64,000 bases of DNA. Origin: Dehalococcoidia bacterium (GTDB lineage: Bacteria > Chloroflexota > Dehalococcoidia > Bin125). The stretch lies in NCBI GenBank assembly GCA_963663235.2, contig CAXXNO010000012.1, forward strand, positions 32,001 through 96,000, given 5' to 3'. Below, piece after piece: positions 6,983 to 22,338 of this stretch. Under the pieces are notes generated by a model. The model saw nothing but the letters and a program-made list of their open reading frames with translations, made no database searches and was not told the origin of the DNA. Both the position numbers and the translations under genes were made by a program. The number at the start of each line of letters is the position of its first letter. Position 1 is the stretch's first letter.

Positions 6983-7936
6983 GGTTCTATCAGATCTCAG
7001 GGCTCGTCGGCGTAGCGTCGCCTCGTTCATGACGCAACGAGGAGACGCCGATGCACTGTCCGCACTGCCGCTCGACTGCGACGACCAAGCGCAGGCATCG
7101 CACGACGCTAGGCTACCAGCGATTCAACTGTCGCGCGTGTGGACGGCGCTTCAACGAGCGGACCGGCACGCCCTTCAACGATCTCCAGTACCCGACGGAC
7201 CTCGTGCTGCTCGCCGTGCTGTGGCGCCTGCGGTACAAGCTCAGCTTCCGGGACGTCGCCGAACTGCTCCTCGAGCGAGGCTACACGGTGACGCATGAGA
7301 CGATCCGCGATTGGGAGTTCCGCTTCGCGCCACTCCTGGCGGACCGGCTTCGCGCCAAGCGGCGCGGTCGCGCGGGCGTCTCCTGGTACATCGATGAGAC
7401 CTACGTGAAGGTCGCCGGGCGATGGTGCTACCTCTATCGCGCGATCGACCGGGAGGGCGCGCTGCTCGATTCGATGCTGAGCGCGCACCGCGACAAGCAC
7501 GCCGCGCGACGCTTCCTGCGGGGTCTCATACAGATCGCCGAACGGAAGCCCTTACGCATCACGACCGACGCGCATCCCGCGTATCGCAAGGCGATCCGGT
7601 GGATCGTCGGGCGGAAGGTGCGACATCGCTGCAATCAATACCTCAACAACTGGATTGAGCAGGATCACCGCGCCATCAAGCAGCGCTACTATCCGATGCG
7701 GGGCTTCGGGCGGTTCGCTTCCGCTGCCCAGTTCTGCGCGGCCTTCGATGCGCTGCGCCAGTACTTTCGCGTTCCGCCCCGGCCCGGACTACCGATCCCG
7801 TTGGCGACGCGGCGCCCGCTGTTCGTCGCCCGCTGGCGGTCCCTGATCCAGGAGATGCAGGTCGCCTAGGACACCATCAACGCTCGCCGGATCACCACGC
7901 ATCGTTGGCCCCGCTGCCCTCAGATCTGACAGAACC
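6983..7936 (+). mobile_element. IS6-family insertion sequence (copy 1)
   Basis: IRs GGTTCTATCAGATCTCAGG (6983) and CCTCAGATCTGACAGAACC (ends 7936), 17/19 match; no target duplication seen. Confidence 0.9.
7051..7869 (+). CDS. IS6-family transposase with N-terminal zinc ribbon
   Basis: CPHC...CRAC; WYIDETYVKV, YLYRAID, TTD, NNWIEQDHRAIK. Confidence 0.92.
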   Translation: MHCPHCRSTATTKRRHRTTLGYQRFNCRACGRRFNERTGTPFNDLQYPTDLVLLAVLWRLRYKLSFRDVAELLLERGYTVTHETIRDWEFRFAPLLADRLRAKRRGRAGVSWYIDETYVKVAGRWCYLYRAIDREGALLDSMLSAHRDKHAARRFLRGLIQIAERKPLRITTDAHPAYRKAIRWIVGRKVRHRCNQYLNNWIEQDHRAIKQRYYPMRGFGRFASAAQFCAAFDALRQYFRVPPRPGLPIPLATRRPLFVARWRSLIQEMQVA

Positions 7937-8610
7937 CGGTGAGGGTGTTCAGGTATCGATTGCATCGGTGCCGCACCGTTCTCCCCAGGATCCCGCGGAT
8001 CGCTCGGCGGTACGGCGGATGCGGGTCCGTCGTGACACGCTCGGGCTTGCGCTCGGCCACGTCCACCAGGCGGCGCAGGAAGCGCCGGGCGGCATGCGTG
8101 TCGCGCTGCGCCCTCCGCCTCGAATCGAGGAGTGCCCCCTCGCGATCGATGGCCCGCTACAGGTAGCACCAGCGGGCCGCGCCCTTCACGGAGGTCTCAT
8201 CGATGGACCAGGCGACCCCGGCGCGGCCGCGGCGCTTGGCCCGGAGCGGGTCCGCCAGGAGCAGCGCGAGGCGGAACTCCCAACTCCGGATCGTCTCGTG
8301 CGTGACTGCGTGGCCCCGCTGGAGGAGCAGCGCGGCCACGTCCCGGAAGCGGAGCGTGTACCGCAGGCGCCACAGCACGGCGAGGAGCACGAGGTCCGTC
8401 GGGTCCTGGAGATCGTTGAACGGCGTGCCGGTCCGCTCGTTGAAGCGCCGTCCGCATGCCCGGCAGCGCAACCTGGGGTAGCCGAGCGTGGTGCGGGGCT
8501 TGCGCTTGATCGTCGCGGTCGAGCGGCAGTGCGGACAGGGCATGGCGTCTCCTCGTCGCGTCATGGGCAAGGCTACGCCACGCCTACGAGTCCTGAGATC
8601 TGACAGAACC
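7937..8610 (-). mobile_element. IS6-family element (copy 2): truncated, transposase pseudogene (ATG 8543, internal TAG 8157-8159)
   Basis: IR GGTTCTGTCAGATCTCAGG at 8610. Codon-colinear with copy 1 for ~200 codons, then cut at 7937 by the right IR of copy 1. Confidence 0.9.
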
Positions 8611-8942
8611 AGCAGATGCTGTGCTGCCCGTGCGTGTGCCACCGGCCGACGTCGTTTCGCCGGGCTCAGAAGTTTCCCGAGGCCACCTCACGCAGGATCG
8701 AGTTGTCCAGCGCCTGCTCCGCGACCAGCTGCTTCAGCCGCGCGTACTCGCGCTCCAGCTCCTTCAGCCGCTTCGCCTGGTCGACCCGCATCCCGCCGTA
8801 CTCGCGACGCCAGCGGTAGTAGGTCTGCTCACTCACCCCGAGCTTGCGCACCGCCTGGCCCACCGTATCGCCCTGGGCGAGGTGGACCTCTGCCTCCCGC
8901 AGCTTGGCGATGATCTCCTCAGCTGCGTACCGCTTCCGCTTA
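8611..8942 (-). mobile_element. IS3-family fragment (orfA plus start of orfB)
   Basis: KRYAAEEIIAKLREAE...TYYRWRREYGG...SGNF, GGAAAC frameshift region, then LSPAKRR; cut by the IS6 end at 8610. Confidence 0.88.
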
Positions 8943-9048
8943 CTCGCCCAGACGAGCTGTGGGGAACCGACGCCACACGCGCGTTCATTCACAAGAGGTA
9001 TACGAGCTGAGAAAGCAACTGGTCGAACCTGTCTTCGGAATCATCAAG
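8943..9048 (+). pseudogene. Two short transposase scraps (IS481/IS3-like, then IS1182-like)
   Basis: Translations RPDELWGTDAT and YELRKQLVEPVFGIIK. Confidence 0.55.
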
Positions 9049-9200
9049 GTATCGATTGTCGTCCTCCGCCGTCTCGGGCTCGATGGTGGAGGCGCCCTCC
9101 TTGACGAAGACGCTCTCTCCGGGAGAGCTGCCAATCCCAAACAAACCGGCGGGTGCGTCGGTTGCCAGGTCTACGGAAACTGTGTACGTCGCGTCCGCCG

Positions 9201-10514
9201 CTACTCATACCAGCCCGATCCAAATAGCAGCCCGTCATGCCGCACAATCCAAGTGTGTTTCTGACGGTCCTCGCCCGATTCCGGGTTGAGCAACACATAG
9301 TCGACCCAATGACCCGCCTCAGTGGCGCTCAGTAAGTCGTCGCCATAGAAATACCCCGTGGCGTCCACACGGAGGCTGGGATCACGCCCTCGAAACTGCG
9401 GGTTATGGTGGGCTATCGTGTAGCCGTCTTGGTCGATGATGAAGACATACCACTGGCCGTCAACACTCTCCTGGGCGTTGTAGTAGGCGACCGTCTCCTC
9501 CAGGCCGAGGGCGACGTAGAGGTTTATGGCCTGCCGCACGAAGGCCTTGGTGTAGGCGGGGGCGTCGGACTTGCTGGGGCCGCGTTCGTACCAGCCGGAG
9601 CCGAAGGTAATGCCGTCGTGGATCACCACCCAGGAGTGCTTGGTCTCCACAACGCCAGAGGCGGGATTGGGATAGGTGTAGTCGAACCAGGCGCCGTCCT
9701 GGTCGGCGGAGGCGGCGACGGCGGACCCTGTGGGGTAGGAGTTGGGTCCGAGAGCCTGGGAGACGTGCTTGCCCACGAGGTCGGGGTTGGGGGCATGAGC
9801 GATGATGGTCTGGTTCTCATCGATGATGAAGACATACCACTGGCCGTCAACGCTCTCCTTGGCGTTGTAGTAGGCGACCGTCTCCTCCAGGCCGAGGGCG
9901 ACGTAGAGGTTCATGGCCTGCCGCACGAAGGCCTTGGTGTAGGCGGGGGCGTCGGACAGGTCCTGCTCGACCAGCGTCCCAGCTTCAAGCCGGAACTGAC
10001 GAATCACGGCAATCGTCGGGGGCTCCGCAAACGGCTCGTGCGGCGCCCGGTCGAACATGGCGACGGTAATGACGCCGTCGTGGATGGAGACGCCCTCGAC
10101 CCGGATGCGATCACCGAGGAACGCGACGGCCGCATCGGAAAGCTCGCCGTCATCGTCGACCAGTGCGTGAAGGTAGGAGAACGTGCCGCTGCCACCGGGG
10201 TCCTCGACCGTAACCGAGGCCGCATCGACCCCGTCACGCCCATCGATATGGCCGGTGGTCCACTTGCCGAGCCGAATGACGAGCTCGCTGGCCGAGCCCT
10301 CGGCGACCGGCTCACGGAACTCGCCGTCTTCGAGTGTGGCCGTGCCCTCCCTGCTGTTCTCAGTGAGATACGTGGCCTGTTCGAGAGTGGCGCCCGTTGG
10401 TGCCCCTGGACCGTCGCCGCCGCACGACACCATCAGCATAGCGCCGAGCAGCAGCGCTCCGAGGAAGAGCAAGCGAGTCCCGGTTCGGGATCTTCTATGT
10501 GGGCCTGACATCAT
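9201..10514 (-). CDS. Secreted lipoprotein with two tandem single-Cache sensor domains
   Basis: Lipobox-like MVSC after a hydrophobic stretch; two repeats of WYVFIID...IAH...W.DY...NP.SG...KH.W...FGSGWYE. Confidence 0.8.
   Translation of the reverse strand: MMSGPHRRSRTGTRLLFLGALLLGAMLMVSCGGDGPGAPTGATLEQATYLTENSREGTATLEDGEFREPVAEGSASELVIRLGKWTTGHIDGRDGVDAASVTVEDPGGSGTFSYLHALVDDDGELSDAAVAFLGDRIRVEGVSIHDGVITVAMFDRAPHEPFAEPPTIAVIRQFRLEAGTLVEQDLSDAPAYTKAFVRQAMNLYVALGLEETVAYYNAKESVDGQWYVFIIDENQTIIAHAPNPDLVGKHVSQALGPNSYPTGSAVAASADQDGAWFDYTYPNPASGVVETKHSWVVIHDGITFGSGWYERGPSKSDAPAYTKAFVRQAINLYVALGLEETVAYYNAQESVDGQWYVFIIDQDGYTIAHHNPQFRGRDPSLRVDATGYFYGDDLLSATEAGHWVDYVLLNPESGEDRQKHTWIVRHDGLLFGSGWYE
9433..9957. 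repeat. 138-bp intragenic direct repeat (9433-9570 and 9820-9957)
   Basis: Manual alignment shows 3 mismatches in 138 bp. Confidence 0.9.
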
Positions 10515-10559
10515 CTCTATTCCTTTCCGGCAGCGCAGGCCGAAGATTGTAGGCGCCCC

Positions 10560-10679
10560 CAGTTCCAGCGCGAGCGAGTCGCGCAGGAATGTTTCCAGTG
10601 ACTCCCTGATCTCCTTGGCTTCGGCCTTTGGCCCGATGAAGCCCAGTACGAAGTCGTCCGCGTAGCGGACGTATCGCAG
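10560..10679 (-). pseudogene. Group II intron reverse transcriptase fragment
   Basis: LRYVRYADDFVLGFIGPKAEAKEI...FLRDSLALEL (RT domains 5-6); bounded by an IS3 end at 10680. Confidence 0.82.
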
Positions 10680-10775
10680 TGACCTGCCCCAGCCTTTGTA
10701 CCACTTCCTAAGTTAGAGCCAGGACAGGTGCGAGCCGTCCCGGCGTGACCGGTTCAGGTGCCGCTTCCGGTTATG
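10680..10775 (-). mobile_element. Isolated IS3-family right end
   Basis: TGACCTGCCCC...TGTACCA resembles the right IR of the IS3 at 22202. Confidence 0.7.
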
Positions 10776-10803
10776 CTACAAGGAAATGTCGTCCGCCCGA
10801 ATG

Positions 10804-11241
10804 TCACGCGGCGAGACGCTCGTACTCGTGATGCAGTCCGCCCAGGATCGGCCGACCCACGACTTGGCCCTCGCTCCGGGGCGGTGACCGTGGCCGCCGG
10901 TCGTCCGGAGCCCACAGTTCGAGCGCCTGGTGCGGTCGCACGTGGTTGTAGTGCGCGACGTACTCCCGCAGCACCAGTCGCAGGTGACGCTCATTCACGA
11001 TGATCAGATGGTCGAGACATTCGCGCCTGAGCGTTCCGACCACACGCTCCGCGATGGCGTTCGCCTTCGGTGCCCGCACCGCAGTGAGGACCGTCTTGAT
11101 CCCGATCGCTCGCGCCTTGCCAAGGAAGGCACCGCCGTACGAGCGGTCGCGGTCCCGGATCAGATAGCGGGGCTGCTGCCCCCACGGCGTCGCCTCCAGC
11201 AACTGACGCCACCCCCACAGCGCTGTCGAATGTGCCGTCAC
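10804..11241 (-). pseudogene. Integrase-core (rve) transposase, C-terminal fragment
   Basis: LIRDRD, PKANAIAERVVGTLRRECLDH, YNHVRPHQAL, LGGLHHEY. Confidence 0.85.
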
Positions 11242-11249
11242 GTTGAAAT

Positions 11250-11510
11250 TGTACCGCTCCTGGTTTCTTGGACACTTCGCTCGCGGTAATCATGCAGCCG
11301 CTCCGGTGCTCGGCGAGAGCGCCTGGCGGACGGCGGCCGGGGTGCGGTGGCCGTGGCGCTCGACCAGCCACTTCTGGTTGTAGCGGTCCTTGAACGCGAG
11401 CAGCGCGAGGCGCAGCTGCTGGACCGTCTCGAACGGCTCCACCCAGAGCAGCTGCTCCTTGAGCGTGCGGATGAAGCGCTCGGCGCAGCCGTTGATCTCG
11501 GGCGGCCACC
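11250..11510 (-). mobile_element. IS481/IS3-like right-end fragment
   Basis: NGCAERFIRTLKEQLLW...YNQKWLVERHGHRTP; terminus 5'-TGTACCGCTCC at 11250. Confidence 0.75.
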
Positions 11511-11576
11511 TCCGAGCGGATGCACAGAGCTGTCCGGCATGCCGCAGTGCACGCGCGCCCGCCGTAGGCTGCAGGT

Positions 11577-12398
11577 ATGGATGCAAGCGACCGCAAAGGG
11601 CGCTTCCCCGGGCACTTACGAGCCGTCGGTGGATTGCGTGTTGCGGGCCTGGCGCTCCTGCTCGCGCGCTACGACGGCTATCAACCCTTCCTCAGTGCCG
11701 CGGCCGACGCGCACGCCAAGCAGCAACAGTTGCTCACGATCAGATCTCCGTCGGATCGGCGCAACGCACTCCGCACACTGAACCATCGCTTTGCCGCACG
11801 CTGGAATCTCCATCACATCGCCGTGTTGCGGGAGAACGATTATGCCGCGGTGGATACTGCGATCGCCCAGACCGGCACGGTATTCAAGGATAAGAAGAAG
11901 AGGTGGCGGCGGGTCGGGCGACCGTTCTACCCCTCCTCGGTCGTGCTCGCGATCGCTCCGCCGCCCGAACCCGTGATGGTGATCGCCGGCGTGCGCTACA
12001 GGTGGCGCCTGAGTGCGGGCGAGAGCCTGGGGCGCTGGCGCGCGCGGATCGCGGCAGGCCGCGGCGTGCGGCGCGGCAGCGATCTGCCCGCGCGGCTGCA
12101 GCGCGAGTTGCGCGCTGCGCCGCGGCGCGCAACTCGCGCGGCGGGCTGGCTCCTGACCGATGACCGGCACGGCCTGGACGAGCATGTGCGCTGGCTCTTC
12201 TGGCGGCTCTGTCCCCAACCCAACCACCCTTGGAGCGGGGAGCAGATCGCGGGGTGCGTGGGCCTTCCTGACAGTGGCGCAGCGGTCCGCTCCAAGCTGC
12301 GCCGGACGGCGGCGCTGCTGGACGTGCGTCTGCCCCCCGTCCGGGGTGGGCGCCCGCGTGGGGCCCGGGCTGCACACCGTGGCCCGCCGCGCCATTAG
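11577..12398 (+). CDS. Hypothetical phage-associated protein, possible C-terminal HTH
   Basis: ORF directly upstream of the methylase-terminase module; WSGEQIA...AVRSKLRRTAALL helix pattern. Confidence 0.4.
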   Translation: MDASDRKGRFPGHLRAVGGLRVAGLALLLARYDGYQPFLSAAADAHAKQQQLLTIRSPSDRRNALRTLNHRFAARWNLHHIAVLRENDYAAVDTAIAQTGTVFKDKKKRWRRVGRPFYPSSVVLAIAPPPEPVMVIAGVRYRWRLSAGESLGRWRARIAAGRGVRRGSDLPARLQRELRAAPRRATRAAGWLLTDDRHGLDEHVRWLFWRLCPQPNHPWSGEQIAGCVGLPDSGAAVRSKLRRTAALLDVRLPPVRGGRPRGARAAHRGPPRH

Positions 12399-12440
12399 AC
12401 GATCCAGGTATGTGGTGGCGGGGGCTGATATGCCGGAAGC

Positions 12441-13712
12441 ATGCAGGCGCCACACGACAACCGCCCGGGCCGTGCGCCCACGTGGCGCTCGCGCATCGTC
12501 GGCCACGGCGACGCCGATCCGCAGACCCTCGTCGCCCACCCGGAAAATTGGCGCGCGCATCCCCGCAACCAGCGTCGCGCCATGGCCGGCGTGCTTGACC
12601 GTGTGGGCTGGGTGCAGGACGTGATCGTCAACCGGCGCACGGGGCGGATCCTGGACGGCCACCTGCGAGTGGCCTTGGCGCTGGAACGCAGGGAGGCAAC
12701 GGTCCCCATCGTGGAGGTCGATCTGCGTGAGGACGAAGAGCGCGTCATCCTCGCGACCTTCGACCCGCTGGGAGCCATGGCGAACGGCGACGCCGACGCA
12801 GTGCAGGATCTGCTGGCGCGCGTGACGGCAGAGGAAGCCGCCGTCGCCGATCTGCTCGGACGGCTCGCCGCCGCGCATCCTGCCACGCCCGATCTGCGTG
12901 CCGACCCGGATGCCGTACCGGAACCGCCGCCGGAGCCGGTCTCGCGGCCGGGGGACTGTTGGACCTGTGGTCCACACCGGGTCTGGTGCGGCGACGCCCA
13001 GGATGCCGCGGCCGTTGCCGGCCTCTTCCCCGACGGCCCCGCCGGCTGGATGTGGACCGACCCGCCGTACGGGATCTCCTACACCGGCAAGACGCCCGCG
13101 GGACTCACGATCGCGGGCGATGCCGCCGACGGGCTGGAGCCGCTCCTCCACGAGAGCTTCCGCGCGGCCGACGCCGTGCTCGCCCCCGGCGCCAGCATCT
13201 TCGTCGCTCACCCGGCCGGGCCGCATAGTCTCGGCTTCGGCGCGGCGTTCCTGGCGGCCGGCTGGCACTGGCACCAGACCCTGACCTGGGTGAAGGACAC
13301 GCTGGTGCTCGGACACAGCGACTTCCACTACCGGCACGAACCCATCCTGTACGGCTGGAAGCCCGGCCGCGCGCACGGCTGGTACGGCGGCCGGGCGGAA
13401 GATTCCATCTTCGCGCTGCCGCGCCCCGCGGCCAGCCGAGCGCATCCGACCATGAAGCCGGTGGCGCTGATCGCGGCCCAACTAGCACTGACCACCCGGC
13501 CCGGCGACCTGGGCTACGACCCCTTCGCCGGGTCGGGCTCCACGCTGATCGCCGCCGAGCAACTCGGGCGGCGCTGCGTGGCCGTTGAGATCGGCCCGCG
13601 CTACGCCGATGTGATCGTGCAGCGCTGGCAAAACGCCACCGGGGGCACCGCGACGCTGGCCGATGATGGCCGCACGTTCGCGCAGATGCAGGAGGTGCGC
13701 CATCGCCGGTAG
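12441..13712 (+). CDS. ParB-like N-terminal domain + N4/N6 DNA methyltransferase (phage type)
   Basis: HPENWRAH...ILDGHLR (ParB); TDPPY; HPTMKP; DPFAGSGST. Confidence 0.9.
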   Translation: MQAPHDNRPGRAPTWRSRIVGHGDADPQTLVAHPENWRAHPRNQRRAMAGVLDRVGWVQDVIVNRRTGRILDGHLRVALALERREATVPIVEVDLREDEERVILATFDPLGAMANGDADAVQDLLARVTAEEAAVADLLGRLAAAHPATPDLRADPDAVPEPPPEPVSRPGDCWTCGPHRVWCGDAQDAAAVAGLFPDGPAGWMWTDPPYGISYTGKTPAGLTIAGDAADGLEPLLHESFRAADAVLAPGASIFVAHPAGPHSLGFGAAFLAAGWHWHQTLTWVKDTLVLGHSDFHYRHEPILYGWKPGRAHGWYGGRAEDSIFALPRPAASRAHPTMKPVALIAAQLALTTRPGDLGYDPFAGSGSTLIAAEQLGRRCVAVEIGPRYADVIVQRWQNATGGTATLADDGRTFAQMQEVRHRR

Positions 13713-14121
13713 ACACACCAAGCTGACGCCCGAGGTCCACCAGCAGATCGTGGCCTTCATCCGCGCCGGCGCCTACGACTGGGTCGCCGCCGAGGCCGCG
13801 GGGATCGGCAAGTCCACGTTCTACCGCTGGCTCGAACGCGGCGAGGCGAGTGCCGCGGAACCGCATCGCATGTTCATGGTGGACGTGCGGGAGGCGCGCG
13901 CGCAGGCACGGGTGGCGGCCGAGACCGAAGTTCGGCGCGACAACCCGCTCGCCTGGCTGCGCTACGGCCCGGGACGCGATCGCGCCGGGGAGCCGGGCTG
14001 GACGGAACGGCATGAGATTGCGGGAGCCGACGGCGCGCCGGTGCGCTTCACGCTCGCCCTGGGATCCGGCAATGAGCCGGAGGGCACCGACGCATCCGAC
14101 GGAGGAGCCGACGATGCCTGA
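13702..14121 (+). CDS. Putative terminase small subunit (HTH)
   Basis: GRHTKLTPE...AAEAAGIGKSTFYRW; EIAGADGAPV tail; sits between the methylase and TerL. RBS GGAGGT precedes ATC rather than ATG. Confidence 0.65.
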   Translation: MAGRHTKLTPEVHQQIVAFIRAGAYDWVAAEAAGIGKSTFYRWLERGEASAAEPHRMFMVDVREARAQARVAAETEVRRDNPLAWLRYGPGRDRAGEPGWTERHEIAGADGAPVRFTLALGSGNEPEGTDASDGGADDA

Positions 14122-15658
14122 GGCGCGCGTGATCACGTACGACCGACCGCCGCTGTACCCCAAGCAGCAGGCCGCGATCTTTGCCCCCGCGCGCTACGCG
14201 GTGATCGAGGCCTCCACCAAGAGCGGTAAGACGCACGGCTGCTTGGCCTGGCTGTTCGAACAGGCCGCGCAGGGCGGGCCCGGGCAGCATTACTGGTGGG
14301 TGGCGCCGGTGGCCGCGCAGGCCCAGATCGCCTACCGGCGGCTCAAGGCGGTGATCCCGCACGGGCTCGCGCGCGCCAATGCAACCGATGCCACCCTGAC
14401 CCTGGCCAACGCCGCCACGATCTGGTTCAAGAGCGCCGAAACCCCGGACCACCTCTACGGCGAGGATGTCCACGCCGCCGTGATCGATGAGGCGACGCGC
14501 GTCAAGGAAGCGGCCTGGCACGCGCTGCGCTCGACGCTGTCCCACACCCGCGGCCCGGTGCGGATCATCGGCAACGTCCGGGGCCGCCGCAACTGGGCCT
14601 ATCGCATGGCCCGCCGGGCGGAGGCGGGCACGCCGGACATGCACTACGCGCGCCTCACCGCCACCGACGCGGTGGCCGCCGGCATCCTGACCGCCGCCGA
14701 AGTGGACGATGCGCAACGGCAATTGCCGGCGGACACGTTCCGGGAGTTGTACTTCGCCGAGCCGGCCGACACCTACGCGTTGGTGTACGCCTCCTTCGGC
14801 GCCGACAACATCAGCCCCGCCGCCGAGTACGCCCCCGGCGCCGGGCCGCTCTACGTGGGGTACGACTGGGGGTTCACGGATCTCACGCACATTGGACTGT
14901 ACCAGCTGCGCGACGAGATGCTGTACCAGTTCGATGAGTTGGTTGGCAACCGGCAGCCCGAGCGGATCTGGGTGCGCCGCGTGGTCGAGCGCGTCCTGGC
15001 GCTGCCGGACTACCGCGGCCCCACGCTGGCGGAGTGGGAGGAGATCTGGGCGGGCCGCGCGGCCCCGGCCCCGCACTGGCCCGACGTCTGGCCGGATTGG
15101 GCGGTCGGGGATCCGTCGGCAGTGCAGCTGCGCCAGACCTTCAAGGCGCACGGGATCTCGGCGCCCGGGCCCGACAAGGTGCGCCACGCGGTCGTCAGCG
15201 GCCAAGACGTGTTGCGGGCGCTGATCTGGAGCGGGGAGGACCGCCGGCGCTTCGTGCTGCATCCGCGCTGCACGGCCACCCGGGAAGCGTTGGAAAATTA
15301 CCGGGCGCTGGACCTCGGGGAAGGCGTCTACGATGCCCGCCCAGACCCCGACCCCGCCAATCACGTCTACAGCCACGGGACCGACCAGGCCCGCCACCTC
15401 GTCTGCTGGTACCGCAACGATCGTGCGAACTGGGAGTGGGGGGAGGAAGCCCGAGACGCGCGCATCACCTGCCCGGCGCTGATGGTGACCGCGGGACGAG
15501 ATCCGGTGCTGACGCCGTCGTTGTCGGCCGGGATGGAGCGGGTGATCCCCCAGCTCCAGCGCGGGCACATCGAAGCTTGCGGCCATTGGACACAGCAGGA
15601 GTGCCCCGAGGAGCTGAATCGCCTCCTGTGCGACTGGCTCACGGAGCTGTCGGCCTGA
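14114..15658 (+). CDS. Terminase large subunit, fused at ~15407 to an alpha/beta-hydrolase C-terminal fragment
   Basis: Walker A STKSGKT, Walker B VIDEA, nuclease GYDWG and HGTD; then WYRN...PALMVTAGRD...GHWTQQE. Confidence 0.82.
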   Translation: MPEARVITYDRPPLYPKQQAAIFAPARYAVIEASTKSGKTHGCLAWLFEQAAQGGPGQHYWWVAPVAAQAQIAYRRLKAVIPHGLARANATDATLTLANAATIWFKSAETPDHLYGEDVHAAVIDEATRVKEAAWHALRSTLSHTRGPVRIIGNVRGRRNWAYRMARRAEAGTPDMHYARLTATDAVAAGILTAAEVDDAQRQLPADTFRELYFAEPADTYALVYASFGADNISPAAEYAPGAGPLYVGYDWGFTDLTHIGLYQLRDEMLYQFDELVGNRQPERIWVRRVVERVLALPDYRGPTLAEWEEIWAGRAAPAPHWPDVWPDWAVGDPSAVQLRQTFKAHGISAPGPDKVRHAVVSGQDVLRALIWSGEDRRRFVLHPRCTATREALENYRALDLGEGVYDARPDPDPANHVYSHGTDQARHLVCWYRNDRANWEWGEEARDARITCPALMVTAGRDPVLTPSLSAGMERVIPQLQRGHIEACGHWTQQECPEELNRLLCDWLTELSA

Positions 15659-15760
15659 CTGCTACTCGATTTCAGGCGCGCGGCAGCGTGACACCCGCCC
15701 GCGCCAACGCCGCGGCGGCGTTCCCGCCCAGGATGGCGTCCCGTTCAGCGGAGGGCGCCG

Positions 15761-17593
15761 TCACGCTTGGGCGAACGGGGGTCGTCGTGCGGCGCGTGCC
15801 GCGGTTGTGGCCTCACCATTGATGACGAGCGTCTCGACCTTCGCCGGGTCCCCGGTGAGGACGACGCCGTAGACGGCGCGCGCGCGGCCGATTGAGATGA
15901 AACCCTCGGCAACGTCGCGCAGGACGGCCTCCGCGTCACGAGTCAGGGGATCGCCGTAGCCGCCGCCGCCGGCGGAGAGGCTCACGATCCGCTCCCCAGG
16001 CTCCAGCCGCTGTTCACCGACGAGATTCGGCAGGACGCGGGTCGAGCCGCCGGCCTCCCGCAGGTGCGCGCCGGGCCCTTGCGTGGGGCCGCCCCCGCGC
16101 ACGCCTTGCGGCGGGTTGAACATCCCGTCGAGCGAATAGTAGACGTCCATCGGGTCCGCGAGCGGGCCGTAGCTGCAGATATTGCCCGGCGCCCCCCGTT
16201 GGCGGCCGGCGCCTTCGGAATCGACGCGGACCTTCTTCTCCCAGAGCACGTAGGGGTACTTCTGCTCGATCACCTCCGCGGAATCGATGTACAGGACGCC
16301 GCCGGCTCCCGGGCCGAGGAGCGTGAGCCAGCCGTCGGATTGCGGCCCGGCGGGGCCGCCGGCGGTGCCACTGAAGACCTCCAACATGTAGGGCTCGCCG
16401 CGGCGCCGGTCGAAGCCGGACACCACGCCGTAGTAGGGCGCCAGGCCCCAGGCCGGCTCGCCCAGGCCCACGCCGTCGGCGAGCTGGGCGAAGGCAGCGA
16501 AGACCATGCCCATGGCGCGCTCCAAGACCGTGGTGGTAGCCATGGAGCAGGAGTAGGGATGGACCGGGATCCCCAGCACGCAGTTCTCGCGTAACAGCAC
16601 ATCGAAGCGACGGAAGCTGCCACCGTTGTTGGGCGCGACCTCCACTTTGGCTTCCGGGCGCGCGTTGAGGATGTGCAGGATGCCGGAGACGGCGGCGGTC
16701 GTGGCGGTGGCGCGGCTCTGATTCAAGCCGGTGGGCGTGCAGTCCGGGTTGTCGCGGAAGTCGACCGTGACGCGCGCGGCCTCTGGGTCGACCGCGATCT
16801 TGGCGTGCAGCGGGATGCCATCGGGGAGGCTGGGGAACGGATCCACCGTGCTCCACGCCTCGGCCTCGCCGGCCGGCAGTTCGCGGATCGCCGCCATGGT
16901 CATGCGCTCGGAGTAGTCCAGCCACTCGCGGACGAAGGTCTTCACCGTCTCCAGCCCGAACTTGCGGCAGAAGGCCTGGATCCCCTGCTCGCCCACCCGG
17001 GCGGCCGCGATCATGGCCAGGTAGTCGCCGTACCAGATCTCGGGGATGCGGATGCGCTTCTGGCACATGCGGATGATGTCGCCGACGTCTGCGTAGTGCT
17101 CCTGAATGCGCACGCACGGGAAGATCAACGCCCCCTCGGCATACACGTCGACGGCCTCGGGCGAGTAGGTCGTGCGGATAGCGTTTCCGGTGTCGGCTTG
17201 GTGCGCCTTCACACAGGCCGTGAAGATGTGCTCGCCGGCATAGAAGACCGGCACCAGGATCGTCCAGTCGGCCGCGTGGGTGTTGCCGAGGTAGGGATCG
17301 TTGTGGAGGAAGGCATCGCCCTCCTCGAAATCGGGGTGGAGTTCAGCCATGGCTTCACAGAGGAGGCCGGAACCGTAGACATGGACGGGGCACCCTTCCG
17401 GTGCAGCGAAGAGCTCATGCTCGGCGGTGGAGAGGGAGCAGGAGAGGTCGCGCGCGGCGAGGGTGGCGGATTGGGCGGTGCGCACGAGCGTGTTGGTCAT
17501 CTCGCGGACGATGCCGTCCACCCGGTTGGCCATGACCAGCAGCTGGATCGGCTCGATCGTGGGTTTCGCGGCGCTCGCATCGCTCGGGGCCAT
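15761..17593 (-). CDS. Hydantoinase B / oxoprolinase family protein
   Basis: NDPYLGNTH, HQADTG, GAGRQRG, GGGGYGDP. Confidence 0.92.
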   Translation of the reverse strand: MAPSDASAAKPTIEPIQLLVMANRVDGIVREMTNTLVRTAQSATLAARDLSCSLSTAEHELFAAPEGCPVHVYGSGLLCEAMAELHPDFEEGDAFLHNDPYLGNTHAADWTILVPVFYAGEHIFTACVKAHQADTGNAIRTTYSPEAVDVYAEGALIFPCVRIQEHYADVGDIIRMCQKRIRIPEIWYGDYLAMIAAARVGEQGIQAFCRKFGLETVKTFVREWLDYSERMTMAAIRELPAGEAEAWSTVDPFPSLPDGIPLHAKIAVDPEAARVTVDFRDNPDCTPTGLNQSRATATTAAVSGILHILNARPEAKVEVAPNNGGSFRRFDVLLRENCVLGIPVHPYSCSMATTTVLERAMGMVFAAFAQLADGVGLGEPAWGLAPYYGVVSGFDRRRGEPYMLEVFSGTAGGPAGPQSDGWLTLLGPGAGGVLYIDSAEVIEQKYPYVLWEKKVRVDSEGAGRQRGAPGNICSYGPLADPMDVYYSLDGMFNPPQGVRGGGPTQGPGAHLREAGGSTRVLPNLVGEQRLEPGERIVSLSAGGGGYGDPLTRDAEAVLRDVAEGFISIGRARAVYGVVLTGDPAKVETLVINGEATTAARAARRPPFAQA

Positions 17594-17803
17594 TGGGCGA
17601 TCTCCTCATCGTGCCTGCACCGAGGCCCCCGACGCACCGGGGCCGATCCACGCGAGCGATGGGTCAGAGCGCTCGATGCGGTCTCGCGTCGCCGCTGAGC
17701 GGAAAGTCTAGCAGCGCGCCATCATCGTGGCGCGTCCGCTGATGAGTCCAATGCAGACCGCGAGGGAATCTACAGACAGCCTCAGCGTCGTGGAAAGCCA
17801 AAC

Positions 17804-18472
17804 GTGACGGACGGGGCGGGGACGACGGTGACGATCGACGTCGATGACCTGCCGGCGGGCACCACGGACATCATCGCGAGCATGGGGGACGCCTCCGCCC
17901 AGGCCGTGGCGGACGCGCTGGCGGAGGCCGGGCTGCCGGCGGGCACGATGGCGTTCGGGGTGGAGATCAATATCTCGGACCAAAACGGGACCGACGTCGG
18001 CGGCACGACGCCGGTGACGGTGCAGTTTGAGCTGCCGGCGGGGTTCGACGCGGCGAGCGGCGCGGTGGTCGTGAACGGGGAGGTCATCGCGGTGACGGTG
18101 GTGTCGTTGGGCCCGCCGGTGGTGGTGGAGGCGTCGTTGCCGCACCTGACGACGGTGTTGTTCGTCGAGATCGTCGAGGAGGAAGCGGAAGAGGAGCCGG
18201 TGGACGAGGTGGAGGAGGTGGTAGAAGAGGAGCCGCCGGCCCCGGACGTCCTCACCCTCAATGCCGGTGGCCAGTTCCTCTTCTGGGCGTTCGGGGCGGC
18301 GCAGGCGGCGGATGTCTTCGGCACGGTCAAAATCGCCTGGCTCTTCGACCCGGCCGCCGTCAGCTGGACCTCGTTCATTCCCGTGCTGGGCATCACCAAC
18401 TTCGCCCTCAGCCAGGGCGCCGTGCTGTGGATCGTCTCGGAGGCGGCGCAGGAGATCGTGCTGCCCGCCTAG
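17804..18472 (+). pseudogene. 3' part of an acidic surface protein with a C-terminal anchoring-like domain
   Basis: Strong coding bias but no signal peptide or RBS; Glu-rich linker, then LNAGGQFLFW...WTSFIP...GAVLWIV. Confidence 0.55.
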
Positions 18473-18746
18473 CGCCGATCGAGGAGGCGTCGGGGGGATC
18501 GGTCGGGGCCAAGGCGCGTTTCCCGGCGGGCGTGAGCTTGTAGGTGCGCCTCGGAGGGTAGGTCGAAGCGTCCCAGCGGCCGGAGAGCAGGCCCCAATCC
18601 TCTAGGCGGTGGAGCGCGTCGAAAATCGCCCGGCCGGGCCGTCCCAGCGTCTTCGTGAGTGCGAATCCATGCGACGGGGACGCTGCGAGCGCTTGGAGAA
18701 TCACCATCTCGGAGTCCAATATTGCGCCAGCCTTACGCCGTGACAT
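18408..18746 (-). CDS. PadR-family regulator (copy 1; stop lost, reads into neighbour)
   Basis: HGFAL, LHRLEDWGLLSGRW, RRTYKLTPAGK; lacks the TCTAGG that supplies the stop in copy 2. Confidence 0.82.
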   Translation of the reverse strand: MSRRKAGAILDSEMVILQALAASPSHGFALTKTLGRPGRAIFDALHRLEDWGLLSGRWDASTYPPRRTYKLTPAGKRALAPTDPPDASSIGARRAARSPAPPPRRSTARRPG

Positions 18747-19030
18747 CGCCCCGAGTCTACGCGCTCCCTGCCATAGCGCAGCAGTGCGCGATCGGGAAGA
18801 TGCGCGAGCCTGGCGCCACCATGCGCGCCGTGATCTCCACCTCGGTACGACCGTCCGATGATGCTGTGCGACCGAATCAGTCCGGCGCGTGCAGCCGCTC
18901 CGCGCGGGGCGCGAACTCGGTGGCCACGCTCGCCAACGGCGATGCCTTCTTCATCCGCCTGACCGGCCCTGCCACCTGGGAGCAGCCGGCGCCGTAACGC
19001 AGTTCCCGCGTTGACGCTCGCGGGCCACGC

Positions 19031-19066
19031 GCCGCGCCTCCGTTCCCTGTGAAACGGAGGCGCGGC
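19031..19066 (+). promoter_or_regulatory. Perfect 14-bp hairpin covering the RBS of the next gene
   Basis: GCCGCGCCTCCGTT / AACGGAGGCGCGGC immediately before ATG 19067. Confidence 0.6.
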
Positions 19067-20257
19067 ATGTCCCCGATGCGACTGATCTCGGTCACAGTCC
19101 TCGTAGTGGTCGGGCTGAGCCTGGGGCTCGGCCTCACCCTCGCGCGCTCGGGCGCGGAGGCGGAGGGTGGGGAACCGATCTCCGTGGGGGGAATCGCCTT
19201 GGGTTTCCCGGAGTTGAACTCCGCGGAGTGGTTCGTGGCGGTCGGCCCGCTGCCGGGGAGCAACGCCACGGGGAGCGGCGACGTGACGCTCCGGTTCGGC
19301 GGTGAGGATGTCGGGGACGTCTCTCTCCGCTTCTTCGACGTGTTCGTCGAGCTCGCCTTCGACGTGCAAGGTCCGCGCGAGGCCGTCACCGCCACCGAAA
19401 TCTACGAGGGGGACCCGGAGGACGGTGGTCGGTTGGTGGTCGCACTCCCCTGCGACCCGATTGCCCCTCGGGAAGCCGAGGGCGAGTCGTGCGAAGGGCC
19501 GAACGCAATCTTCAGCGACGGCTTTGAATCGGGCGACCTCTCGCGCGCGGCGCTGGCTGCCGGCCGGGTGTTCGTCCTCGTCCGCACGACGGCCGGGGAT
19601 CTCGGCGGCTTTCTCCAGCCCGTGGCCGACGAAGTCGTGTCCGGCGACGCGCCGGTTGAGGTGCAGATTCCTGCAGGTCTCAGCCCGCTCGGCTTTTGCG
19701 GCGCGGAGATGACCACGGACCAACTGTTCGATCAGTACCCGCAGTTGCGACGGGTGTTCGTCCTGGTCCCGCTGGAGCGGCGCTTCGACGTGGCGGATCC
19801 GGGACTGCCCCGCTCCATCCGGCAGAACTTCACTCTCCGGTTCGGGACGGCGGTGTTCGTGTCCGCCAGCGAGAGCTTCACCATGGAGATCCCCGTCGGC
19901 GGAGATGGTTCCGCGGGATTCCTCCCGACCCCCGTGGTCGATGACAGTTTGAGTTTCGATTTCCTCAGCGGCCTGAATTTCGTCGCGAACTGCGGGGATA
20001 CGGTGACGAACACCGACCTGCTGGACCGATTCGCGGAGAACGTCCGGATCTTCACTTTCCTCAACCAGGCGCGACGGTGGGTCGGGATCAGCACCGATCT
20101 GCCGCCCCTCCTCCGGGAGGAGACGCTGATCCCCAATGCGTCGGCCTTCATGATCATCACCGAGGTGCCGGGGACTATCGTTCTTCCGTGTCTCACCACC
20201 GACTGCACGCGCTGGAAGGTGGAGTTGGGCGGCGAGACCACGTCGGATGGCGTCTGA
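19067..20257 (+). CDS. Secreted protein with a CHRD-like domain and two anchoring-like repeats
   Basis: Signal peptide; SNATG...TATEIYEG...GGRLVVAL...AGRVFVLVRT; IPAGLSPLG and LSGLNFVA repeats. Confidence 0.6.
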   Translation: MSPMRLISVTVLVVVGLSLGLGLTLARSGAEAEGGEPISVGGIALGFPELNSAEWFVAVGPLPGSNATGSGDVTLRFGGEDVGDVSLRFFDVFVELAFDVQGPREAVTATEIYEGDPEDGGRLVVALPCDPIAPREAEGESCEGPNAIFSDGFESGDLSRAALAAGRVFVLVRTTAGDLGGFLQPVADEVVSGDAPVEVQIPAGLSPLGFCGAEMTTDQLFDQYPQLRRVFVLVPLERRFDVADPGLPRSIRQNFTLRFGTAVFVSASESFTMEIPVGGDGSAGFLPTPVVDDSLSFDFLSGLNFVANCGDTVTNTDLLDRFAENVRIFTFLNQARRWVGISTDLPPLLREETLIPNASAFMIITEVPGTIVLPCLTTDCTRWKVELGGETTSDGV

Positions 20258-20608
20258 AGCCGCGCCGCCCCCGTCGGCAATACGTTCGCCACGCTCAACA
20301 ATGGCGACGCCTTCTTCATCCGCCTGACCGCCGCCGCGACGTGGGAGCAGCCCGCGCCGTAAGCCACGCCGTCGCGCCCCGAGGAACGTGAGCACCTGAT
20401 CAGAGCCGGCGCTTTACGGAGTGTCTAAGGAATTTCCGCCAGGGGCCCCTAGCCAATAGATAGCGTCGCGGGAACCGGGGGTGCCTCGCGCCTCAGGCCT
20501 ATTGGATCAGCCGGATCGAGGCTCTTGGGAAACTCCTGTTCTGACGTAAAAGCGGCTGAGGGGCAGCGTGGGGCCACCAGGGGCCGATCTCGGGCATCGG
20601 ATCGAGGT

Positions 20609-20875
20609 CTAGGGGGCGTCGGGGGGATCGGCCGGAGGCAAGGCGCGGCGGCCGGCGCTTGTGAGTTTGTAGACCCTGCGAGGAGGAGCCGTCGTCGTAT
20701 CCCATCGACCCGACAGGAGGCCCTTACTGTCGAGCCGTTGCAAGGCCCCGAAGATAGTACGTCTCGGCTGGCCTAGAGCCTCGGCAAGCGCCCAGCCGTG
20801 ACGGGGCGACTCCGCCAGCGCTGCGAGGATCGTCTTCTCCGAGTCCAAGAGCCTGTCTGCCTTGCGTCGTGGCAT
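20609..20875 (-). CDS. PadR-family regulator (copy 2)
   Basis: HGWAL, LQRLDSKGLLSGRW, RRVYKLTSAGR; clear paralog of 18408-18746. Confidence 0.85.
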   Translation of the reverse strand: MPRRKADRLLDSEKTILAALAESPRHGWALAEALGQPRRTIFGALQRLDSKGLLSGRWDTTTAPPRRVYKLTSAGRRALPPADPPDAP

Positions 20876-20897
20876 CGCCCTTAATCTAGGCGTTCGT

Positions 20898-20950
20898 GGC
20901 ACTAGCGCGATAGACTACTTGACACTATTAGCGCTAGTGCCGTATACGAT
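20898..20950. promoter_or_regulatory. Palindromic operator overlapping a sigma70-like promoter divergent from PadR
   Basis: GGCACTAGCGC / GCGCTAGTGCC 11-bp IR around TTGACA (20919), followed by TATACGAT. Confidence 0.55.
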
Positions 20951-20952
20951 AG

Positions 20953-22202
20953 TGACCTGCCCCCCCAGAACCGGTCCAGATCCTGTGCGAGGATTCGGGC
21001 CGGTGCGAAGGCCTCCCCGAGTCGGCATGGCACGCAAGCGGTACGCGGCCGAGGAGATCATCGGCCACCTGCGGGAGGCGGAGGGGGTGCTCGCGCCGGG
21101 GGAATCGGTCGCGCCGGTCGCGCGCCGCCTCGGCGTGGCCGAGCCAACGTATTACCGCTGGCGGCGGGAGGACGGGGGGCTGCGGGTCGACCCGGCCAAG
21201 CGGCTGAAAGAACGGGAGCGCGAGAACAGTCGGCTGAAGCGGGTGGTGGCCGATCAGGCGCGGGCCAACGCGATGGTGCGGGACGTCGCAGCGGGAAACT
21301 TCTGAGCCCGGCCAAGCGGCGCCGGGCGACATCCTACCGCACGGACCCGTACGCGGTGGCGGAGCGGCGGGCCGGCCCGGTCACCGGCCAGGCGCGGGCG
21401 ACCCAGCGCGACGTGCCCCGGCCGTCCCCGGATGCGCCGGCGCTGATCGCGCGCAGCGTCGCGCTGGCCCCCCGCTGCGGCCGCTACGGCTCCCGTCGCA
21501 TCCCGGCCCGGCTGCGCCAGGCGGGCTGGCGGGTGAACCCCAAGCGGGTCGAGCGGCGCTGGCGTCAGGAAGGCTGGCGGGTCCCCGGGAAGCACCCCCA
21601 ACGGGGCCGCCGCTGGCTCGCGGCCGGCTCGCTGGTGCGGCGGCGGGCCGAGCGGCCGTCCCACGTCTGGTCCTCCGCCTTCGTCTTCGACCGCACCGCC
21701 GAGGGGCGCCCGGTGCGGATCCTCGCCATCGTGGATGAGGACCACCCGCGAGGGCCTGCGTCTCGACGTCGCCCGCCGACGGCGCCGCGACGTCGGCCTG
21801 GCGCGGTTGGCCCAGCTGTTCGTCGAGCGCGGGCCGCCGACGTTTCTGCGGTCCGCCAACGGCCCGGCGTGCACCGCCACCGCGGTGCGGGACTGGCTGC
21901 ACCGGGTCGGGGGCACGACCCGCTTCATCGAACCGGGCAGGCCTTGGGCGAACGGCTCTGGGGAATCGTTCAACGGCAAGCTGCGCGACGCGTGCCTCAA
22001 TCGCGAGCGCTTCGACACCCTGCTGGAAGCCCAGATCCTCATCAAGGGCTGGCGGCGGGAGGACAACCCGATCCGCCCCCACCGTGCCCTCGGCTCCCGC
22101 CCCCCCGCCCCGGAAACGCAGCAACCCCGGGAACGTCCCATGACGCGCGTCCCGGCGATCGGACTCACCTTAACGACTGGTACAACGATCGGGGGCAGGT
22201 CA
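20953..22202 (+). mobile_element. Full-length IS3-family (IS407-group) element, heavily mutated; orfA 21027-21305, orfB ~21302-22170 with one frameshift near 21742
   Basis: IRs TGACCTGCCCCC / GGGGGCAGGTCA; 1250 bp; recognisable but degraded orfA/orfB motifs. Confidence 0.92.
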
Positions 22203-22338
22203 GCGGTGGCCGTCACTGGTGGGACAACTCGCTCAACGTCTATGAGGTCGGTGTTACAATTTTCGTGTTCGAGCACGATCATCGCGTGCTCCCTTCGCCG
22301 AGGCGCCGCCCAACACCGGGCGGCGCTCTCATATCCGA

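Follow-up and report, generated by a model that had tools for sequence, protein, structure and literature searches.

A dead insertion sequence (IS) of the IS6 family in the genome of a Dehalococcoidia bacterium was found to carry a mutational load dominated by a single class of transversion, A:T>C:G; this load marks dead IS6 copies in three genomes and recurs in an IS3-family element that is present in at least 15 damaged copies. The relic (copy 2) lies in a stretch of 64,000 nucleotides (nt), here called the window (contig CAXXNO010000012.1, positions 32,001 to 96,000), which forms part of contig C12 of genome G000 (2.75 Mb, 14 contigs), the named relatives of which in public collections are metagenome-assembled genomes of the Chloroflexota/Dehalococcoidia. 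The load is polarised, is specific for A>C (used below as shorthand for A:T>C:G, with the other classes abbreviated likewise), strikes both strands, is spread unevenly among dead copies and is accompanied by recombination among copies. The process behind it looks bound to particular repeat families and not genome-wide.

Copy 2 lies next to a second IS6 element, copy 1, with which it was initially compared. The features concerned are:

Positions 6983 to 7936, plus strand: copy 1, an intact and active IS6-family element with an open reading frame (ORF) at 7051 to 7869 encoding 272 amino acids (aa).
Positions 7937 to 8610, minus strand: copy 2, a 3'-truncated IS6-family relic, tail to tail with copy 1.
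Positions 8157 to 8159, minus strand: an in-frame TAG at codon 129 of copy 2, derived from TAT by T>G.

Copy 1 displays both hallmarks of the family, namely a match to the IS6 transposase model (NCBIfam NF033587, 208.5 bits at a cut-off of 125; PF13610, 141.3 bits) and short terminal inverted repeats around a single ORF (~0.8–0.95 kb). The repeats read GGTTCTATCAGATCTCAGGGC and GGTTCTGTCAGATCTGAGGGC and match at 19 of 21 nt. Six copies of this element with an identical protein are present in G000, and only 4 nt sites differ among all of them (~955 nt). Copy 1 resembles IS26-like elements in its model match, its one ORF, its short terminal repeats and its many identical copies. It differs in that no 8-bp target-site duplication surrounds it (the flanks read GCGCCACC and CGGTGAGG), which is, however, expected if copy 1 deleted part of copy 2 and is thus no argument against IS6 membership. 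Copy 2 retains the left inverted repeat, which ends at 8610, and the leader (8544–8610, 87 % complementary to 6983–7049) together with codons 1–202 (8543–7938, with the ATG at 8543–8541). It has no right end, being cut exactly at the right end of copy 1 (7936); such truncation, at the very end of another member of the family, is typical of the adjacent deletions and insertions made by IS6 elements. As a dead relic it scores slightly below the cut-off (NF033587, 123.8 bits over 202 codons with X at the stop; PF13610, 54.4 bits over codons 130–202). The junction between copy 1 and truncated copy 2 is present again at C11:47108–48192 of G000, with 130 nt of copy 2 at 100 % identity including TGG>GGG, and is a recent IS6-mediated duplication.

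The initial annotation had aligned the two copies without gaps over about 200 codons and listed codon changes of the A>C/T>G kind. The alignment indeed runs ungapped through 606 nt or 202 codons (115 differences, 81 % identity), and all 18 changes listed are present in copy 2, among them (with codon numbers) CAC>CCC 2, TAC>GAC 47, AAG>ACG 63, 149 and 189, AGC>CGC 65, GAA>GCG 71, TCC>GCC 111, TAC>TCC 113 and 118, GTC>GGC 121, TAT>TAG 129 (8159–8157), ATG>AGG 142, CTG>CGG 143, TGG>GGG 184 and AAC>ACC 200. The list is selective, as the residue differs at 45 codons between the copies. From copy 1 to copy 2, the full spectrum comprises 23 A:T>C:G and 4 reverse changes, 32 A:T>G:C, 12 G:C>A:T, 43 C<>G and 1 A<>T. 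Unpolarised, the A:T<>C:G share of 23 % is ordinary for diverged G000 paralogs, which amount over 782 high-scoring segment pairs to 21 % A:T<>C:G, 35 % transitions and 38 % C<>G. What is unusual is the direction (23 against 4, p=3e-4) and the position of the changes, A>C accounting for 21 of 55 nonsynonymous-type and 2 of 60 synonymous-type changes.

The annotation had called for polarisation by outgroup sequences followed by a binomial test, and this test gave a strong excess. IS6 genes were gathered from G000, its relatives, GTDB genomes and metagenomes, and 205 tblastn matches were reduced to 151 (ungapped, reaching from residue 5 or earlier to residue 198 or later) and thence to 133 distinct sequences, among which 296 sites (140 A/T, 156 G/C) show at least 85 % agreement. 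At these conserved sites copy 2 departs 19 times, by 14 A:T>C:G, 2 A:T>G:C, 2 C:G>G:C and 1 C:G>T:A, against a pooled IS6 background of 181 A:T>C:G among 1305 departures (binomial p=5.7e-9). Ranked by A>C share among the 133 sequences, copy 2 is second (0.43; median 0.03), surpassed only by the copy L033 (0.47) of genome G041. The excess is therefore real, and the annotation's own ground for abandoning the claim, a polarised spectrum with no such excess, does not apply. It is furthermore specific to A>C, since a general GC-ward pull would raise A>G too, and A>G is not raised.

A second set of 402 conserved sites, derived from the 107 full-length genes among the 133, extends this observation to other dead IS6 copies; indel-bearing copies (L009 and L027) entered this comparison only via blastn mapping. 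A>C makes up 21 of 30 and 17 of 28 departures in L027 and L020 of G003 (another genus of the family), 20 of 25 in L033 and 14 of 27 in a second G041 copy, 17 of 26 in the G000 relic L009 (C11:33217–33829) and 14 of 21 in copy 2. Clean IS6 copies yield 2 of 9 (L008), 2 of 18 (L007) and 3 of 13 (L076), with a background of 195 among 1480. The suspicion that copy 1 is lightly affected as well proved justified, as 5 of the 11 departures of this active element are A>C. One further dead IS6 copy (C4:48335–49293) was uninformative: apart from one inserted base, its divergence from copy 1 is confined to the first 163 nt, where it looks like a mosaic 5' end.

As A>C and T>G seldom give rise to stops and always leave the frame intact, such copies can stay open while conserved residues are lost. 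L033, for example, is open over 272 codons and scores 151.6 bits with NF033587, compared to 208.5 bits for copy 1. The annotation had regarded intact IS6 transposases with the residues of copy 2 as evidence that would overturn its claim. Proteins of this kind do exist in the protein database (~272 aa, e. g., P0005, P0008, P0014, and P0024) and carry the odd residues of copy 2 in mosaic patterns; they look open but damaged and do not seem to amount to a refutation.

L033 also dates the load. It is a full-length copy in G041 (OY762959.1), a genome of another lineage, and shares the outside junction of copy 2 as part of a larger block:

Positions 7937 to 10779, no strand assigned: block common to G000 and G041 (OY762959.1:431896–434733; L195/L196, G041:C1:431896–434733), 98.3 % identical, with neighbouring genes at ~70 %.

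The contrast between this 2.8-kb block and its neighbours implies that the block moved between lineages; mobile DNA thus passes between different lineages here. L033 and copy 2 differ at 27 of 606 nt and share 100 of the 115 differences of copy 2 from copy 1. On their common stem, 11 A>C and 2 C>G fall at sites with a majority of at least 85 %, and 18 A>C, 6 A>G, 2 A>T, 2 C>A, 10 C>G and 2 C>T at sites with a majority of at least 70 %. After the split, copy 2 acquired 15 changes (4 A>C, 4 A>G, 4 C>G, 3 C>T) and L033 12 (4 A>C, 2 A>G, 1 A>T, 2 C>A, 1 C>G, 2 C>T). Codon 129 was struck twice independently by T>G, giving TAT>TAG in copy 2 and TAT>GAT in L033. With most hits on the shared stem, most of the load predates the separate history of copy 2's locus, and the view that the damage arose at the place of copy 2 alone is not sustained. 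Nor does copy 2 qualify as a mutated sister of its neighbour copy 1: once A<>C/G<>T changes are masked, the two still differ by 13.8 %, a distance equal to that separating copy 2 from marine IS6 genes that are clean. Copy 1 was also considered as a conversion donor for copy 2 or L033 and rejected, as the 27 differences are interspersed with the 100 shared ones and no tract is visible. Small exchanges of copy 2 with other relics are possible, its variants at nt 123, 139, 212 and 213 matching the fragment at C11:46890.

The annotation had also maintained that the same spectrum occurs in a different IS family on the opposite strand, and this is borne out by the following element and at least 14 sisters:

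Positions 20953 to 22203, plus strand: damaged IS3-family copy, one of at least 15, with 75 % GC and all three DDE residues replaced by Ala.

This copy is very probably the one that the annotation had treated as its first case. In a self-comparison of G000 in which all repeat pairs were ranked by the asymmetry of A>C versus C>A, about the top 30 rows all belong to this one element of 1.25 kb. Its assignment to IS3 follows from an orfA, an orfB with rve core and terminal inverted repeats, the ends reading TGACCTGCCCCC...GGGGGCAGGTCA; the domains found are HTH_Tnp_1, HTH_21 and rve/rve_3 (PF01527, 66.9 bits; PF13276, 36.6 bits; PF13683, 72.1 bits), and a clean copy matches NF033516 with 128.3 bits on a 142-aa piece. 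The damaged copies (at least 15) are 96.4–100 % alike, and two clean copies with 69 % GC are located at C4:40353–41600 and C8:175119–176361. Between clean and damaged copies there are ~64 A>C against 4 C>A, while transitions (35 versus 29) and C<>G (~52) are balanced. Where the clean copies read REYGG, SYDF, SDNG and PWENGY, the damaged ones read REDGG, SSAF, SANG and PWANGS; these motifs hold the catalytic D, D and E. Profile scores over the same 142 residues confirm the polarity, falling from 102 bits (clean) to 72 bits (damaged) for rve_3 and from 44 to 18 bits for rve. The IS6 model scores point the same way, with 208.5 bits for copy 1, 151.6 for L033 and 123.8 for copy 2.

Polymorphism was counted in 15 damaged copies, the short ones at C7:1–249 and C12:470871–471332 being left out. 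When polarised by the clean pair, the 65 polymorphic sites comprise 45 A>C, 5 A>G, 8 C>T, 3 C>G, 3 C>A and 1 A>T, and the 147 fixed differences 33 A>C, 3 C>A, 31 A>G, 25 C>T, 52 C>G and 3 A>T. Summed over all pairs of damaged copies, A:T<>C:G contributes 1763 of 2171 differences (81 %). At least one copy is struck at 79 of the 373 A/T sites (~21 %), and the two strands are alike (44 of 209 A sites, 35 of 164 T sites). No target motif or strand bias was detected among the IS3 hits except for a depletion of A 5' of the hit (0.04 versus 0.20). Variants private to single damaged copies are ordinary, only 6 of 23 being A>C.

Some further observations concern the same elements. The clean copy at C4:40353–41600 lies within L008, a clean IS6 copy beginning at residue 40, and has the 5-bp direct repeat GACTC on either side; no target duplication was seen in the 12 damaged copies inspected. 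The same damaged IS3-family element is also present in G041, at 96–97.5 % identity. A third transposase family with an rve core, related to positions 10804–11241 of the window, has copies at C8:168245–168664, C8:201100–201537, C8:208795–209232 and C11:41544–41981, which read NDGG and YDNDTRPH where relatives read SYGG and HYN..RPH; the change Tyr>Asp is of the same T>G kind.

The hits are moreover shuffled between copies. Among 12 full-length damaged IS3 copies with 33 informative sites (28 of them A>C), 213 of 528 site pairs (40 %) fail the four-gamete test, with failure rising from 12 % under 30 nt to 36–49 % beyond and r2 falling from 0.31 to 0.16. Exchange between copies predicts such a dependence on distance, which purely recurrent mutation would not give. 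Damaged IS6 lineages likewise share hits above chance (e. g., 8 versus 2.1 expected, or 6 versus 1.5), and those that do are not nearest kin at other sites.

Whether the process is genome-wide or tied to repeats was examined on DNA outside the damaged copies. In the window, this includes a dead element adjoining copy 2:

Positions 8643 to 8992, minus strand: IS3-family orfA relic, dead (no orfB) and free of the signature, with REYGG, KELERE and QALDN intact.

In the block common to G000 and G041, the IS6 part has 31 substitutions in 676 nt compared to 6 in 588 nt for the orfA relic and spacer (8613–9200; p=1.5e-4) and 5 in 1314 nt for a neighbouring 437-aa gene. The claim that the process is not window-wide thus withstood examination, as the orfA relic (8666–8992) keeps its motifs and the flank of copy 2 is little changed relative to G041. 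The clean IS3 pair is itself dead, sitting within a disrupted IS6 copy and having a frame break in orfB that is common to all copies, and shows 17 differences, of which only 2 of the 16 that could be polarised are A>C. By the other classes it is more diverged (0.88 %) than the damaged copies (mean 0.37 %); had it shared a genome with them during a burst, at least 32 A>C would be expected where 2 are seen (P=7e-12), on the assumption, common to all such clock arguments, that dead copies do not differ in how they accumulate the other substitution classes.

Host genes point in the same direction. At third codon positions of 10 recent host paralog pairs (10 of 19 non-IS3 rows, after omission of a 7.7-kb C8 duplication with IS pieces, six IS6 rows, one redundant pair and one IS6 relic pair), the 340 differences comprise 35 A:T<>C:G, 183 transitions, 119 C<>G and 3 A<>T. 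For A:T<>C:G over transitions this gives 0.19, compared to 3.7 (48 versus 13) in the IS3 family (p=9e-20), which rules out a continuous host-wide bias. In the rpoB gene of G003, 3 of 112 conserved-site departures are A>C and C>T is dominant, compared to 17–21 A>C in the IS6 relics of this genome. In G000 rpoB, 13 of 114 departures are A>C, the second highest value of 27 genomes, although selection on residues applies and the conserved third positions are all G/C. GC content at third codon positions (GC3) of rpoB in 27 genomes of the family (L205–L234) spans 0.73–0.98, with several genera at 0.97–0.98, and G000 genes have ~0.85. As the signature is missing from host synonymous sites, from the dead but clean IS3 pair and from the sequence flanking copy 2, the process appears linked to particular families of repeats.

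A>C on either strand implies that G is placed opposite A, and a load that is uneven among dead copies, stops at the IS border and is shuffled between copies favours a link to pairing. Tentatively, we infer that errors placing G opposite A, or the correction of A·G to C·G, are linked to recombination between copies. MutY removes A from A·G mispairs, giving C·G, and Y-family polymerases use oxidised dGTP. In this scenario, copy 2 would be the relic of an IS6 lineage other than that of copy 1, cut short when copy 1 landed in it or by a deletion beside copy 1. Its lineage gathered an almost pure A:T>C:G load, mostly before L033 split off and with a few later hits in both descendants. The chemical step would consist of oxidised dGTP incorporated opposite A and/or a MutY-type glycosylase excising A from A·G mispairs, mainly where IS copies pair, that is, during repair synthesis or mismatch correction in inter-copy heteroduplexes. 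Repeated IS DNA would thereby collect and share hits, and single-copy DNA would not; active copies may stay clean because damage deprives a copy of the ability to multiply on its own. Oxidised dGTP opposite A is described as the mutT signature, A·T>C·G, in PMC13212565 (citing Fowler and Schaaper 1997).

Several points weigh against this preferred reading. An A>C burst in time combined with unbiased shuffling gives the same site patterns, and biased correction alone would, by our estimate, lift the A>C rate at most by about the copy number, which barely covers the ~6-fold excess. The dead IS6 lineages are only 70–87 % alike, which is low for pairing, and the six copies with identical protein show no ongoing damage. 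Recent branches are only moderately enriched (A>C 4 of 15 in copy 2 and 4 of 12 in L033), so the underlying process may have ceased. Counts are small on these terminal branches and also on the flank of copy 2, 3 of its 11 substitutions in 2167 nt being of the A:T<>C:G class; the frames of the host paralogs held 0–5 stops, and their codon positions are hence approximate. G000 furthermore contains homopolymer errors: its rpoB (C4:534800–539200) is spread over four frames by three +1 shifts, each at a G run (GGGAGGGGC, CCCGGGGCG, and TTCGGGGGAG). Frameshifts in G000 are therefore weak evidence of gene death, and the argument rests on substitutions.

The main alternative, which we deem unlikely though well worth serious attention, is a host-wide mutT-like episode in the host or a former host that was recorded by dead resident IS copies, the clean ones having arrived later by transfer. 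The nucleotide pool would have been unclean for some time, e. g., because an 8-oxo-dGTP hydrolase was lost or weak, and neutral A:T sites throughout would have drifted towards C:G. The spectrum equals the one reported for mutT-deficient cells (PMC13212565), and synonymous GC in the family is extreme (the rpoB range given above), with an equilibrium GC of ~0.92 computed from the IS3 spectrum. Since mobile DNA moves between these genomes, the damage may have been imported; the ordinary private variants are what one would see after the end of an episode, and A>C is enriched only moderately on the late branches leading to copy 2 and L033. The repair genes add little: Fpg is present in G000 and no MutT match reaches the cut-off (TIGR00586, best 34.6 versus 97.9 bits), but only 3 of 14 control genomes pass it either, which renders the test uninformative. 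The sole MutY-like gene (C12:439751–440377, L200) covers model positions 3–212 of 277 (205.7 bits, cut-off 286.5) in a 256-aa open frame and may be a short form or cut by an assembly error. Such an episode is at odds with the clean IS3 pair, which is older by the other classes, has 2 A>C where at least 32 are expected and must have entered twice, already diverged. It likewise conflicts with the 35 A:T<>C:G at host third positions, to which the burst alone should have added 45–78 (P=0.07 to 3e-4), with the ~4.5- to 8-fold gap in divergence between the IS6 part and its flank despite one history since the G000/G041 split, and with the AT-ward evolution of G003 host genes. Alternatively, the errors might arise in transposition itself, if the synthesis of IS3 (copy-out-paste-in) and IS6 (cointegrate) were error-prone for G opposite A while resting copies remained unchanged. 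The IS3 A>C sites are mostly shared (37 shared versus 6 private), as from a moving master line, the clean IS3 pair stems from a segmental duplication (same flanks over 1845 nt) and not from transposition, and the hits in copy 2 and L033 end at the IS border. We nonetheless consider this explanation improbable, as the six IS6 copies, which required five or more recent moves, are distinguished by just 4 nt sites in ~955 nt, the 40 % of incompatible site pairs fit no tree, and copy 2 and L033 gained hits without moving from their common junction. The rate per move that it requires (several hits per 1.2 kb) is, as far as we are aware, well beyond the error rates known for polymerases.

A dedicated repeat- or transposon-directed mutagenic defence, turning A:T into C:G until the element is dead, would account for two or three unrelated IS families being struck while host genes and flank are spared, for the ~21 % of IS3 A/T sites struck in at least one copy (79 of 373), for the loss of all three catalytic residues in IS3 and for the same sites being struck in separate lineages above chance. 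It leaves unexplained, however, why six near-identical IS6 copies are untouched and why some dead copies are clean alongside others that are damaged. Moreover, the hits follow no target motif, and no enzyme is known to turn A into C; we see little to recommend this explanation. Least credible of all, in our view, is that nothing special occurred, i. e., that ordinary IS6 divergence combined with amelioration to a GC-rich host, or assembly and sequencing error, produced the pattern. The raw class shares of copies 1 and 2 do equal the paralog background, and the G000 assembly does contain homopolymer errors. Yet the polarised excess (p=6e-9) is specific to A>C (A>G, 2 of 19), and a GC-ward pull would favour A>G too; errors, in turn, would not spare identical clean copies. 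The same damaged sequences recur in assemblies that were deposited separately (G041 and G003), among proteins derived from ENA and in contigs from four public runs covering 7937–20900. Contigs of the public runs have 0–3 differences per piece from the host genes, too few for a SNP spectrum, and the IS-rich part has a depth of hundreds to thousands, from many community members; among the 40 of 392 public-run differences listed, two lie in copy 2, and both are the G041 allele.

Several known systems resemble the phenomenon, but each fails at least one defining feature. The mutT signature of E. coli consists nearly entirely of A:T>C:G on both strands, without a strict motif and GC-ward, and the dominance of this class is found here as well (14 of 19 in copy 2, 20 of 25 in L033, 45 of 65 IS3 polymorphisms). 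It is, however, genome-wide, whereas here the signature is confined to certain IS lineages (host 35 of 340, clean pair 2 of 16, flank 3 of 11). MutY correction or GC-biased gene conversion would resolve inter-copy heteroduplexes from A·G to C·G, and recombination is evident, but GC-biased conversion usually favours all AT>GC changes and A>G is not enriched (5 versus 45 A>C in IS3, 2 versus 14 in copy 2). Fungal repeat-induced point mutation (RIP) similarly kills transposon copies by a one-class mutation load and spares host genes; it acts by C:G>T:A at CpA in all repeat copies before meiosis, whereas the changes here are A:T>C:G without a motif, and six near-identical active copies are untouched. 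Diversity-generating retroelements also target adenines, and the annotation places a reverse-transcriptase fragment nearby, but these systems convert A to any base, acting on a single strand of a short variable repeat that has a matching template repeat, while here A changes only to C, A and T sites are hit alike (44 of 209 versus 35 of 164) and whole elements of 0.8–1.2 kb are affected. That in these Chloroflexota transposon repeats are loaded with A:T>C:G until catalytic death while single-copy DNA is spared, by a dedicated defence or by recombination-coupled mutagenesis, as a bacterial counterpart of RIP with other chemistry, seems to us rather doubtful.

A full-text literature search returned, in the portions of the texts accessible, no account of bacterial insertion sequences loaded with A:T>C:G. 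An AT bias of mutation in bacteria is widely accepted (PMC2936535). The cause of the very high GC content of some genomes is an open question, and here neutral DNA of a GC-rich lineage decays GC-ward by one transversion class. If the process is tied to repeats, it would represent a so far undescribed bacterial route of transposon inactivation and a new source of open but dead transposase genes that inflate gene catalogues. If it was host-wide, the relics would be a natural record of a mutT-like regime, and the link between nucleotide-pool hygiene and GC content would become testable in wild lineages. Under either reading, the test of departures at conserved sites can be applied to any IS family in any genome.

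Two further genes of the window are worth describing. The 437-aa ORF at 9201–10514 (minus strand), within the block shared with G041, has an internal duplication (motif APAYTKAFVRQA...VDGQWYVFIID occurring twice) and reaches a depth of 1,500–33,000 in contigs of runs X11–X16, as compared to ~10–30 for host genes farther on. A 610-aa gene at 15761–17593 (minus strand) belongs to a 1.8-kb family with about 15 paralogs in G000 at 70–96 % identity, some of which are arranged in tandem arrays (C4:696059–702744 and C11:131189–136633).

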